Positions 19,845-28,674 of a stretch of 64,000 nt of DNA are shown here, in pieces (the first letter of the stretch is position 1; every line of letters starts with the position of its first letter). The DNA comes from Narcine bancroftii (taxonomy: Eukaryota). The translations under genes and the position numbers were made by a program. A model generated the notes under the pieces. It was not told the origin of the DNA, did no database searches, and saw only the letters and a list, made by a program, of their open reading frames with translations. The DNA lies in NCBI RefSeq assembly GCF_036971445.1, contig NC_091469.1, positions 157,542,001-157,606,000 of the forward strand. Direction: 5' to 3'.

Positions 19845-20207
19845 CCACAACCTGCAGATCCGTCTCATCCTGAGTCACTGTTTTCCACTCGGGATCCTGG
19901 ACCCAGACATGACAGAAGTAGCGGCTGGTGTCATTCAGACTAAGGTCCGTCACCCTGATGGAGGCATTTCCCTGCTCTGGGTTTCCCACCAGCTCGTATT
20001 GACCTCCTTTATTTACAGTGGCAGTGCAGGGAGGGGACGCAGAGCGGGAACAGGTGTGATTAAAGGCAGTGAACTCTTCCCGTGGATTCCCCTTCATCCA
20101 GACGATAATGATGGAGCTGACATTCCTGCCCGGAAAGTTGAAGGAGCAGAGCAGTATAGCCGAACCTCCCCTTTTCCCAATCACCGGTGATGCTCTGTCC
20201 TTATCAC
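19845..20207 (-). CDS. Exon: Ig V-set domain 2 of a Siglec-15-like IgSF gene
   Basis: Acceptor ...ttcaattaag|GT and donor GTGG|gtaagg. 363 nt, phase 1-1, no stops. Encodes GGSAILLCSF, IIIVW, LVGNPEQGNASIRVTDLSLNDTSRYFCHV, with an extra C-x7-C pair as in the Siglec-15 V domain. Confidence 0.88.
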
Positions 20208-20559
20208 CTTAATTGAAAGGAGTTTAAAGCATGAACATTATTCAGTTGCTCTCTGTTTTTGCCATAACACAAAGACTATTAGTGGTGAAAATACTTACAT
20301 TATTATTCTTGGATATAGGCAATTATTATTATATTTATATATTAGACTAGTCATGACACTACTCCAGGACCAAAAACTGCTACCTCGTTCCCTGGCGAAG
20401 AGTTCAGGCCCGAATCGTTAGTTATATATCTTTGCCTCCCATGGATGTTGCGGGACCTGCTGAGTTTCTCCAGCAATTTTGTGTATTTATCGTTGTTAAC
20501 TTCATTTTTTTCGCACTATCTATATCTGTGAATACTTGTCTATCTTTTTATACTTATCA

Positions 20560-21015
20560 CCTTTTGCTTGAAGCCTACGTCATTAAGAATCAGCGAAGAT
20601 GGAGCAGTCACGTCGCTCAAATGGAAGACAAACATCTGCCAAAAGGAATCGACTCCCACCTTAAAGAAGGCAGGCGTAAAAGAGGTGGGCCATAGAAGAG
20701 ATTCAAAGACGTCTTAAAATGCAGCATGAAGAAATGTAACATCGACCTCAATCGTTGGGAAACCAATGCCAGGAAACTCTGGCAAACCATCAATCGAGAA
20801 GGAACAGCAGCTTTCGATGCCAACAGATGTGCAGAACCAGAAGAGAAGGGAAGCAAATGGTGGAAAGGGAGGCAGCAACAACCAAAGCCCGATCTGCCAT
20901 CTGGAACAACCTGTCCTGACTGCAGAAGATCTTTCAAAGCCAAGAATGGGCTCATAAGCCACTTGAGAGTCCATAATTGGAATGAAATCCATCATCCTCG
21001 ACCTCGAGGGATAGC
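20560..21015 (+). mobile_element. RTE-clade LINE 3' fragment
   Basis: RWSSHVAQMED..LPK, GRRKRGGP and terminal zinc finger CPDCRRSFKAKNGLISHLRVH. Confidence 0.85.
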
Positions 21016-22059
21016 CACGACGATAATGTGGTCATTTAATTTATTGTTTGTCCGTATATATTTAAATACCAGCACGGCTGCAGCAAGTAGCGAGAATTTC
21101 GGTTCAGCTCTACATTTTGCACATGTATATGACAATATACTCCCATTATCCTCATGGGTTACTCCTTGAAACTGACAGTTGTGGTGGGATTCGGCACATC
21201 TGGAGTCCATCTCCTAAAGTCATCAGTGGCGATCGAGTGTGTAGACACCGTAAAGGTTAAAACCTTGTGTTTTTGTTTTGCAGTTAATTCCTTTCAGTGT
21301 TTGTAGTGTTACCAGAGTTACTATGATGTCATATGAAGTAATATCCGAGCGGACGGAGGGTTTTTATCTCATTCTTCGAAGAACCATGAAAGATACGTGT
21401 GCTCGAGATATTTTTCTTTGAATAAGAATATAGACAGCACTTTCCAAGTTCTAATATTTCCCAATTTCATCCTCACAGCAACATAAGAAATGATATTCCA
21501 AATGACTATCTTAATTTATCTTATTTCATGTTCATCATCTTATTTTGTTTATATTTATTTCGGTTTAAAGTAGAATATTGTTATCATTATACGGTATGCT
21601 TTGCTCGTCATTGTGTAAGTCTCAATGCGAAGTTATGCAAAATGTTATATCAAAGAATTAAAGCTATTTACAGCTGCATCTATGAAGTGTGATTTATTGG
21701 ATTAATAAAATAGTAATTCGGAATATTGTTGCTTATATTTCTGAGACGATGTTTTGAAATTGGGAAATATTACAACTTGGAAAGCGTCGTCTATATTCTT
21801 AGCTGGGGGACCGCACAATGCAATCAGTGGATGTGACTGCAAAAAAACTGACATACTGGCTTCACTGTAAATTACCCTGAGGTTGAGACTTTGTAATCAG
21901 TTCCCTGTGCCAGCAAACTACACAGGACAATTTTTTTTTTCAAAGGGTTTGCTTCCTGAAAGAAAATTGGGGATTATGATAAACAGCTTCAAGCTGAACA
22001 CAAAGGTTCTTTCAGACTTGCTGTATCATGTAGGAAGTTGGAGAAACATTAAATTACCT

Positions 22060-22911
22060 TTTATTGAATTTACCAGGTTTAATCGCATTAATGACGCTGA
22101 CACGTTGTGTTAGTTCGACTGACCTAAAAATGCTTTTCTGCTGATTTTCCTTTTGTACTCGGCATCGGATGCCTCTCATGTCAGTGTCTAACAATAATCG
22201 GCCGGCGTTGATGGATTCCCAATTGCCCTGATACCACATTTCCATGGTCGCAATGCCCTGATGAAACCTCTCACTGTGTTCATCGCTGACTGCACCAAGA
22301 TCAGCAGGGAAGAAGTCCAAGTACGAATGCAGAAAATGAATTTTCAATGACATGTTGAACTTTATGGTTTCGTATGCTTGAAGTACGACCATTTGGGCAT
22401 ATGACATATGACCGAAATTTTTAAAAATAAATTTATGCTGTTTATACAGGGCGAGCAAGAGCCAAAATGTTCATACTTACCCTGTTAGTCGGCGTCCCGG
22501 GGTCCGTAGGCTGCGCATGGCCATCTTGATTCCCATGCACATGCACAAGTCTTCGGTTCAGGGTTAAGGGCGCAAATTCAATATCTCGCGCATGCGCCAA
22601 CCGAAACTCCAATACGTGAACCCTCCTCCCATGCGCCAATCAAAGTCTTGCGCATGCGCCACCCAGCTTACGGACCTCGGTACGCCAACTAATGAGGAAA
22701 GTACTCAATTCTGGCATGCGCCCATTCCAAGATACAACTGGGAACGTAGCACGAACCTGACTTAAAATATCATAGAAAATCACAAAAATAGGCTTTATCT
22801 AAAAATCGGTACACGATAGGAACATCTTAAGATGACTTCCGTGATCAACAGCCCAAAATCCATGAAATGCACCCAAACGTGTTCAGGAAGTAAAATCTTC
22901 ATTGTCCAGTG
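22060..22911 (-). mobile_element. Internally deleted DNA transposon, probably CMC/Chapaev3-like
   Basis: Transposase C-terminus MSLKIHFLHSYLDFFPADLGAVSDEHSERFHQ (ORF 22054-22458). Terminus CACTGGACAA on the minus strand at 22911, next to TTA. Family assignment is from recalled motifs. Confidence 0.65.
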
Positions 22912-26511: not shown

Positions 26512-26755
26512 GGCGGCCCGGTCAGTGCAACAGTTAGCGCAACGCTGATGCAGCGTGAGCGATTGGGACCGGGGTTCGAATCCCGCGCTGTCTGTAAGGA
26601 GATTGTACGTTGGCCTTGTGCCTGCACGGGTTTCATCCAGTGGCTCCGGTTTCCTCCCACCGTTCGAAACGTACCAGGGGTTGTAATTGGGTGTAAATTG
26701 GGTGGCACGGGCTTGTGGGCCGAAATGGCCTGCATGTCTAAATTTTTTAAAATTC
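26512..26755 (+). mobile_element. tRNA-derived SINE
   Basis: B-box GGTTCGAATCC, family core, tail gcatgtctaaatttttt. Flanked by minus-strand SINE pieces. Confidence 0.8.
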
Positions 26756-27011
26756 GAAATCAGAGTTCTCAGAGGAGGCCCACACAAATACAAGGAGATC
26801 ATACAAACTCCTTACAGACATTGCTGGATTTGAACCCTGGTCGCTGGGGCTGCAACAGCATTGTGCTAACCGCTACCCTGTCACCCTTCTTAGTTATGCA
26901 AGTTGTATAATCACTAACTGGCTGCCAATGTTATTTTTCTTCTCTATTATCAGAATGTTGTCAAACGACAGGACATAAGGGCAAAAGAAATCACAAGTTG
27001 AAGTTTTAAAT

Positions 27012-27368
27012 CAGTGGTTCTCAACCTTTTTCTTTCCACTTTAAGTCATCCCTCTGCCATCTGTGATCAGTGAGGGATTGCTTAAGGTGGGATGTGGGTG
27101 GGAAGGGAAGGTTGAGAATCACTGCTCTGGACCTCATTGTTACTGAAATATTTGGCTTGAGAAAAATTGTCATTGGTCCATTTTCTTTGGCGTTCTGAAA
27201 CCCTGCACATAACGAGTCAATGAGGGACGGTTAAAACAGTGGTTTTCAAACTTTTTCTTTCCACCCACATCCCACCCGAAACAATCCCTCACTAATCACA
27301 GAGCACCTACGGCACAGGGAACACTTAAAGTGGGATGTGAGTGGAAAGAAAAAGGTTGAGAACCACTG
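27012..27368. mobile_element. hAT MITE
   Basis: TIR CAGTGGTTCTCAACC at both ends and perfect 8-bp TSD TTTTAAAT. Confidence 0.92.
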
Positions 27369-28625
27369 TTTTAAATTTTACATTTTATGATTCGTTTATT
27401 TGTCGCATTGTAATTCTTCTGCGTAAGTAGAAGAGCAAGAGAAGAATTACAGGTTGCAATAAAAGATCAACGTGTTGTAAAGCAGGAATAATCCTTAGTT
27501 CCAAAGTCCCATTCAATAAACTCACCACTGATCTTTTACCTCTGCCCCAGTCCCATATTTCTCAATCCCTTTAATATACAAAAATCTACTCTCTTGAAAG
27601 TATTTATCAGCTGAGCATCTGGGTAGAGGATTCTTGTTACATTGTGAGTGATGACATCACCGTCCTGGATGGTCAACTCCTAATGTCTGTTTTATTTTGT
27701 ATGTACAATACCAAACAAGTTGATTCCAGCCATTGAAATCCGTCCTGCTAAATTGTATCCAATTAACCTCCAAACATTCGTCCATTTTGGAGGGTAGAAA
27801 GAAGCAGGAGTGCCCGGGCAAAACTCCTCAGGTCACAGGGAAATAGTACAAATCTCCTCCGTCAGATTTGAAGCCAGGTTACTTGTTCTGTAAAAGCGTT
27901 GAGACCCTGTTTGCCTGCAGCTGGAGGTCCCTGCCACGTCTCTACTGTGGCATTGGAAGGACAAACAACTTTCAAATCTCGGCACTGAACTCAAGTTCAG
28001 GTTGCTTATCCAAATTAACCTATATCCTGGTACGTTTTTGAAGGGTGGGAGGAAAGCGGAGCCCCCGGATAAAACCTACACCTACATGGGGAGAACATAC
28101 AAATTCCTCACCGACAGCGCAGGATTCGAACCCAGGTTCTAGCGCTGTAAAGGCACTGTATAATCACACATACACAACAATATATAATGTAAAATAAATA
28201 TATTTTGGGATGGTTTACTCGGTTACAGGATACCATTCAGCAATCTCACAGCCTGTGGGAAGAAGCTATTCCCCAGCCTGACGGTCCTGATTTCTATGCT
28301 CCTGTACCTCCTTCCAGATGATAGTGGGTCAAAAGCACTGTGCGCTGGATGGAAAGGGTCCTCAATAATTCTGTGTGCCTCCTTGAAGCAATGGTCCTGG
28401 TAAATGACATCAAATAGGGGAAAGGGAGACCCCCATGAACTCGGAGGTCGATTAGAATTGTCCAGCTCAGCTCAATGAGGGGCTTGGTCATTCTCCAACC
28501 CTGGAGGGTGTTTAATAAGTGAGCTTCTAGATGATTCATGGACTCCAATGCAGGGCAAGGGTGTCGTGCTCTGACCAAATTTAATCTGGAATGGGATTAG
28601 TTTGTGCCTCACAATGGAAACCTAC

Positions 28626-28674
28626 CTGCAGCAGAGAAAACCTGGATCGTCATGCAGAGTGGAATAGCGAACAT
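28626..28674 (-). CDS. Signal-peptide (leader) exon of the Siglec-15-like gene
   Basis: Kozak-like accATG. Encodes MFAIPLCMTIQVFSAA+G in 49 nt with a phase-1 donor CAG|gtaggt. Splices in frame to the V1 exon (G-LLCNSWTVE). Confidence 0.8.

Follow-up and report, generated by a model that had tools for sequence, protein, structure and literature searches.

A Siglec-15-related receptor gene of the paired-Siglec type, probably activating, in the ray Narcine bancroftii, predicted not to bind sialic acid

Results

Organization of the gene

The window analysed here is a stretch of 64,000 nucleotides from the ray Narcine bancroftii, located at C1:157542001-157606000 on the contig labelled C1 of assembly G000, and it carries on its minus strand the first three exons of a receptor gene related to Siglec-15. 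Exon 1 (28626..28674, 49 nt) encodes a signal peptide of 16 residues plus one nucleotide and ends at a GT donor; its length and sequence resemble those of the leaders of P0022, P0024, P0026 and P0027. Exon 2 (23569..23955, 387 nt) and exon 3 (19845..20207, 363 nt), both on the minus strand as well, encode two V-set domains, V1 and V2. The V1 and V2 exons are preceded by AG, all three exons are followed by GT, the junctions are phase-1 and the joined reading is free of stops, exactly as an earlier note, made from the sequence alone, had described. With 30.5 bits for V1 and 46.8 for V2, the two V exons exceed the 26-bit Pfam threshold for V-set domains, so this is no chance open reading frame.

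The same note had reported no C2, transmembrane or tail exon in the ~19.8 kb downstream within the window and had left two outcomes, a 3' end beyond base 1 or a secreted protein. A tblastn search of window positions 1-19844 likewise revealed no C2, transmembrane or further V exon, and this segment (1..19844, minus strand) is the window part of a repeat-rich 21-kb intron 3 that continues past base 1. With a skate counterpart as query, exon 4 was located 1,244 bases past base 1 (G000:C1:157540757-157540374, minus strand). It is 384 nt long, flanked by AG and GT, runs from phase 1 to phase 1 and encodes a C2 domain followed by a transmembrane segment with a Lys, which has a single match across the G000 genome. 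The first of the two outcomes therefore held, and a secreted protein is ruled out by the transmembrane exon. The last coding exon is probably the 8-nt exon at G000:C1:157532294-157532287 (minus strand), which would complete Asp-Ser-stop and precedes two AATAAA signals; its strong acceptor, ~8 kb past exon 4, is one of six generic candidates, and a search for this exon with a pattern from the Asn-type endings of other species gave no match. The joined model comprises 396 residues arranged as leader-V1-V2-C2-transmembrane segment with a three-residue tail. All five exons are open and have proper splice sites, and this V-V-C2 membrane-protein model appears very likely to be correct.

The suggestion that more V domains might follow the tandem pair did not survive, as no V exon beyond those already found was detected in the 864-kb region around the gene and none lies between V2 and C2. 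The pair itself does belong to one gene: models of counterparts in other species have these domains joined in an identical order, and no other leader, C2 or transmembrane homologue is found in between. The surroundings are repetitive, as was also claimed; the introns show a high multi-copy depth and 60% of the 864-kb region is masked by k-mer masking at a 16-mer count of at least 3.

Read contigs from all three same-species runs, presumed to be RNA, cover V1 at a depth of ~2-7 in three bins, each run being present in one or two of them, and within the interval examined (19700-24100) they cover neither V2 nor the unique intron bin that adjoins V1. The V1-V2 joint was absent among 15 of 72 joints in these runs, and no RNA dataset was listed as containing the V1 stretch. 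The cover is thus a weak hint of expression, for V1 alone.

Counterparts in other cartilaginous fishes

Two homologue searches yielded 21 and 38 proteins, exclusively of cartilaginous fishes. The counterparts among them are all gene predictions, many of which automated annotation names "Siglec-15". The same Lys-bearing transmembrane segment is present in all 20 counterpart models from 19 other species (rays, skates, sharks and one chimaera) and varies hardly at all among sharks and rays, so the gene is not lineage-specific in the narrow sense that had been proposed. Identity of the domains to those of 11 counterparts ranges over 41-64% for V1, 42-69% for V2 and 49-74% for C2. The three catshark records lack the V1 F strand. 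More generally, most of V1 is missing from catshark models, and predicted stingray and whale shark isoforms skip most of it (P0033, P0240, P0241, P0016 and P0036), leaving a Siglec-15-like V-C2-transmembrane layout.

Relationship to Siglec-15

The resemblance to Siglec-15 noticed from the letters alone is supported by both sequence and fold. The best PDB match of each V domain is human Siglec-15 (7zoz), with 45.9 bits (E 6e-11) for V1 and 50.3 bits (E 2e-12) for V2, against 20.6 bits (E 0.004) and 31.1 bits (E 2e-6) for the next-best matches. A 15-sequence profile gave 131 bits for Siglec-15 and 78 for the next entry. In fold comparison Siglec-15 ranks first for both domains, with TM-scores of 0.79 (V1) and 0.80 (V2); these values rest on AlphaFold models with a confidence (pLDDT) of 78.7 for V1, where only two of five models exceed 70, and 87.8 for V2. 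The C2 and transmembrane part aligns to Siglec-15 too, its Lys being in register with human, bird, frog, coelacanth and lungfish sequences. Furthermore, a coelacanth SIGLEC15 query in G000 found all 12 of its matches in the cluster of related genes around the window gene, which is therefore this genome's SIGLEC15 kin.

Compared with Siglec-15 (human PDB 7ZOZ; bird P0162, frog P0155, coelacanth P0130, lungfish P0060), the ray gene shares the V-set fold with its B-F disulfide, whose cysteines (C64-C142 equivalents) are present in both V1 and V2, as well as the single C2 and the transmembrane Lys. The second Siglec-15 pair, C95-C104, is absent from V1; the corresponding region of V2 holds a cysteine pair with one cysteine offset, common to the V2 of the neighbouring gene and not to the V2 of other species. 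The ray gene differs from Siglec-15 in its V-V-C2 layout instead of one V and one C2, in the loss of the Arg143 and Tyr154 equivalents, in a three-residue tail without the Tyr motif that is seen in P0162 and P0060, and in its position within a cluster with a partner bearing ITIMs (immunoreceptor tyrosine-based inhibitory motifs). A tandem V is not unique; among the sequences seen, it is otherwise present only in the lungfish SIGLEC15 model P0060, whose two V domains both carry the Arg and which has the transmembrane Lys. Another lungfish model, P0041, is a relative that has seven V domains, each of them Arg-bearing. V1 (23569-23955, minus strand) also has two extra cysteines, near its N-terminus and in the FG loop, which the counterparts lack and which might pair.

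Trees of V domains and of V-C2, built with no CD22, MAG or CD33 sequences, left a clade with bony-vertebrate SIGLEC15 unresolved and the deep forks open. The neighbours of the human SIGLEC15 gene are taken to be SLC14A1/2, ATP5F1A and EPG5. In G000 the urea transporters map to C8:71.3-71.6 Mb, and ATP synthase alpha maps to C8:35.5 Mb, the receptor cluster being on C1; the two markers are 36 Mb apart, so the presumed block is rearranged in any case. No related exon for a canonical SIGLEC15 was found within 200 kb downstream of the C8 urea transporters. A profile search covering 1.84 billion representatives added bony-vertebrate SIGLEC15 models, a lungfish model and a single-V gene of other cartilaginous fishes. 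The latter (P0067, P0068, P0070 and P0218, from manta, skate, white shark and chimaera) is Siglec-15-like and Arg-bearing, lacks the transmembrane Lys and lies on contigs that equal in length those carrying the V-V-C2 genes. It was not found in G000, where only the best candidates were scored and their best matches, of 26-44% identity, all belong to other loci. On present sequence comparison, the window gene is best described as Siglec-15-related and of the activating paired-Siglec type; it is not filed as Siglec-15 proper, because the single V, Arg143, Tyr154 and the presumed gene neighbours all fail to correspond.

The sialic-acid site

In human Siglec-15, R143 forms a salt bridge to Neu5Ac, W44 and Y154 stack on the ligand, V150, R153, E155 and Y87 contribute hydrogen bonds, and R143A abolishes binding (PMC10264397). 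The equivalent residues were read from an alignment on bird SIGLEC15, from which 7 of 40 rows were left out. The F strands, read again as RYVCLV in V1 and RYFCHV in V2, lack the Arg in both domains, as the earlier note had stated; in the alignments with 7zoz, the Arg of YFCRV faces Leu in V1 and His in V2. V1 retains the Trp44 equivalent and has Leu at the Arg143 site, Ser at the Tyr154 site and, on the pocket rim, an N-x-T sequon at the equivalent of His151. V2 has His at the Arg143 site and neither aromatic residue; in the window gene and several rays it carries an Arg at the Tyr87-equivalent column. The neighbouring gene, by contrast with this state, keeps Trp, Arg and Phe in its V1 and has no sequon.

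These features extend to other species. At the V1 Arg site, counterparts have Leu in 15 of 17 models, Arg in one (Mustelus) and Trp in one (chimaera); at the V2 site they have His in 15 of 20, Tyr in two, Cys in one and Arg in two. The window gene and 9 of 11 counterparts carry the rim sequon, whereas none of seven aligned paralogue V1 domains has it. Among the paralogues, the V1 Arg is kept in 12 of 14 records, some of which are isoforms of one gene. From these residues, the window receptor is predicted not to bind sialic acid.

The paralogue cluster

The idea that the gene belongs to a multigene family is borne out by a paralogue search, which detected no fewer than 24 related V exons across C1:157.36-159.92 Mb. 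The adjacent gene, P0009, starts 17.9 kb downstream on the same strand, and its exons map to C1:157.42-157.51 Mb; exons in this neighbourhood match database proteins labelled Narcine bancroftii. P0009 has a V-V-C2-transmembrane layout with an uncharged transmembrane segment and a long tail containing the ITIM-type motifs VIYSTV and SLYSNV, and is likely an inhibitory gene by these features. Neither canonical cysteine survives in the neighbour V2 (G000:C1:157463805-157464170, L013), where a frameshift that is compensated locally removed one and a Cys-to-Ser change the other. This domain keeps the cysteine pair of the C'-C'' loop that is common to the window V2. Beyond the neighbour lies an inverted copy of it (G000:C1:157340225-157381162; L003, L014 and L055), 95-98% identical over ~20 kb, which is likely a pseudogene, since its V1 is frameshifted and its tail exon contains a stop.

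V-V units that lack C2 make up a second family of at least nine pairs at G000:C1:158002674-159923811 (L004-L006, L008-L011, L015-L022, L025, L072 and L122). At the Arg site, its first V has Arg, His, Gly or Ser and its second V always Leu. Database models of this family include Lys forms and Tyr-motif forms; for instance, P0170 is named pIgR-like, yet has a Siglec-15-like transmembrane Lys. L009/L010 and L020/L021 are near-identical recent duplicates. The two receptor groups are separated by a plus-strand SLC5A6-like (sodium-dependent multivitamin transporter) gene at G000:C1:157867282-157918946 (L152-L157). A weak match at G000:C5:186859920-186860240 (L070), judged by eye, looks like a butyrophilin/B7-type V exon and is unrelated to the cluster. 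Upstream of the window gene, 591 N occupy 37528-38118 in repeat-rich DNA, with no bearing on the model as far as seen, and retroelement or retrovirus-like pol fragments with short open stretches are found at about 43800-56200.

Gene conversion between the window gene and its neighbour

The DNA identity between the window gene and the neighbour is 81.5% in V2, 62% in V1 and 69% in the exon for C2 and the transmembrane segment, and no intron similarity longer than about 40 bases was found between them. Synonymous divergence (dS), obtained by simple counting, is 0.23+/-0.06 for V2 (110 codons, 10 frameshifted codons excluded), 1.37+/-0.34 for V1 (126 codons) and 0.58+/-0.13 for C2 (87 codons). 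In a quick tree of 81 of 96 domains, 15 near-redundant rows being dropped, with Shimodaira-Hasegawa-like approximate likelihood ratio (SH-aLRT) support only, the window V2 joins the neighbour V2 with a support of 95 (99/97 in the V2-C2 tree), and the window V1 joins the activating-type V1 of other species with 99 for rays and 94 for rays and sharks. Across species, V1 groups by receptor type, while the grouping of V2 and V2-C2 follows species or lineage. Indeed, within-species identity between activating forms and paralogues is 67-95% for V2 and 55-99% for C2 in eight pairs, and 38-54% for V1 in six pairs. The same pattern of high V2 and low V1 protein identity occurs in sawfish, sevengill shark, horn shark and chimaera, the V1 of the pair being missing in both sharks. 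It looks as if V2 has been converted between the two genes and V1 spared. A stronger constraint on the V2 protein would be another possible cause of the likeness, but it would not reduce dS.

Discussion

The reading that we favour, as somewhat more probable than all others together, is that the product of the window gene is an activating receptor, which would rely on a DAP12/DAP10-type adaptor for signalling, would not bind sialic acid and would be paired with its inhibitory neighbour. The membrane Lys would recruit the adaptor; in Siglec-15 the transmembrane Lys-to-Ala change abolishes DAP10/12 association (PMC7226832), and since the tail of the ray receptor has three residues, signalling would require such an adaptor. 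The window gene and its ITIM-bearing neighbour would form an old activating/inhibitory pair, in which V1 of the inhibitor may read self sialic acid and damp cells. The V1 site of the window receptor being closed, self glycans would not fire it, and it would respond to a different ligand, probably a protein or a microbial one; the change of ligand proposed in the earlier note seems plausible, and has more in its favour than could be seen from the window. V2, and C2 in several species, would be swapped between the partners by conversion and V1 kept distinct. We propose more tentatively, and as less probable than not, that Siglec-15 became a paired system in cartilaginous fishes, that the site of the activating member was closed in three ways (Arg, aromatic residue and glycan cap) before sharks and rays split, and that its V1, exempt from the conversion that makes the remaining ectodomain uniform, reads a conserved non-sialic ligand and the inhibitor sialylated self.

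Several observations weigh against the favoured reading. The Mustelus counterpart keeps Arg and Phe in V1, an Arg is seen in V2 of two carpet sharks (Chiloscyllium plagiosum and the whale shark), the chimaera model P0044 combines a V1 Arg with the transmembrane Lys, and two ray paralogues have Gln in V1. Because the species share ancestry, the residue counts do not represent independent events. TIM-like and hagfish V domains, too, have an Arg following the F-strand Cys, and the neighbour's Arg is therefore no proof of a lectin. The V2 dN/dS between activating and inhibitory forms is 0.86 and the neighbour V2 is without both canonical cysteines, which weakens V2 as a common binding site. A DAP10-family search of G000 gave one stop-ridden match only (E 0.3), and no spliced transcript was seen in the presumed-RNA runs. 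Finally, zebrafish Siglec-15 bound the tested glycans poorly (PMC7226832).

The best-surviving alternative, which we nevertheless regard as unlikely, places the function in the stalk: microbes would use a protein to contact V2-C2 of the inhibitor, and the window gene would copy V2-C2 by conversion and turn this contact into activation, V1 serving as a capped spacer. The high identity of paralogues in V2 and C2 and the low one in V1 would fit such a counter-trap, as would the three catshark models without the V1 F strand, and paired Siglecs are known as counter-traps (PMC6288428). However, V1 is about as conserved among counterparts as V2, which points to a separate function for it, the core cysteines of the neighbour V2 are lost, and conversion of close neighbours can occur without selection.

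It is more doubtful still that the receptor remains a glycan-binding Siglec that uses other residues, such as the V2 His or the Arg in the C-C' loop of ray V2, to hold sialic acid or sulfated glycans, perhaps in a pH-dependent manner. The prevalence of His at the V2 site, the Arg found there in two models and the Arg at the Tyr87-equivalent column would speak for it. On the other hand, V2 has no Trp44 or Tyr154 equivalent, and for ape Siglec-5/14 recognition is described as lost upon an Arg-to-His change (PMC7379906).

Membership of another family of the immunoglobulin superfamily (MDIR/CD300/pIgR, PILR, NITR, TIM or B7), with a mere resemblance to Siglec-15, is very improbable. It could draw on the open position of bony-vertebrate SIGLEC15 in the trees, on the presumed SIGLEC15 neighbour markers lying on another contig, on the database names CD276-like or CXADR-like of some relatives, and on the skate MDIRs, a known activating/inhibitory multigene family (PMC3031540). 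Against this, V1, V2, C2 and the transmembrane segment each indicate Siglec-15, V2 scores 24 bits against pIgR and 50 against Siglec-15, neither CD300, PILR nor NITR is among the matches listed, coelacanth SIGLEC15 matches this cluster alone in G000, and no MDIR-named record occurs among the proteins of the homologue searches. Least credible of all is a silent relic or a set of exons from separate genes, which the lack of a database record of the exact protein in the homologue searches and the 21-kb distance from V2 to C2 might suggest; the exons are open and have proper splice sites, counterpart models link the same domains without any foreign leader, C2 or transmembrane homologue between them here, and the truly decayed neighbour copy shows a frameshift and a stop that the window gene has not.

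The favoured pairing of a sialic-acid-blind activating receptor with an inhibitory neighbour has parallels elsewhere. Primate Siglecs 5/14 and 11/16 likewise are inhibitory and charged-transmembrane neighbours with gene conversion (PMC6288428, PMC5701461, PMC7379906), but they are CD33-related. The Siglec-11/16 conversion covers the N-terminal V, including the sialic-acid V exon, and keeps the ligands alike (PMC5701461), whereas the ray pair shows the reverse pattern, with V1 left out. In the ray pair, moreover, only one partner lacks the Arg, a state common to sharks and rays. Human Siglec-XII also has two V-set domains and a lost essential Arg (R122C), but it is CD33-related and recruits SHP-2, and its loss is recent, human-specific and accompanied by common null alleles (PMC6288428); the ray gene is of the activating type and its loss appears old and conserved. 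Skate MDIRs resemble the ray genes as a multigene activating/inhibitory immunoglobulin-superfamily set of cartilaginous fish, but are described as CD300/TREM/pIgR-like where the ray genes are Siglec-15-like, a separation made by description, not by sequence (PMC3031540).

Loss of the Arg in itself is already known, from Siglec-XII (PMC6288428) and from Arg-to-His or Tyr changes in ape Siglec-5/14 (PMC7379906). What is new, on the sequence evidence, is its combination within the Siglec-15 branch: an activating form, both old and conserved, whose site appears closed, a partner whose site appears open, and a conversion that seems to skip V1. No description of this gene or pair was found in the literature searched, which did not extend to subscription journals.

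From fish to mammals, Siglec-15 has been regarded as one single activating lectin that is conserved and depends on its Arg (PMC7226832). Its relatives in cartilaginous fishes make up a cluster of activating-type and inhibitory-type members, the conserved activating-type form being devoid of the site, and this alters the picture of the ancestral locus. The two genes would provide a natural pair with the site on and off on the same scaffold, suited to experiments on how self-reactivity of activating Siglecs is avoided, and would exemplify a gene conversion from which the tip domain is exempt. Should the more tentative proposal on the closed site be true, this ray would be without a sialic-acid-binding activating V-C2 Siglec-15, the type that drives mammalian osteoclasts.

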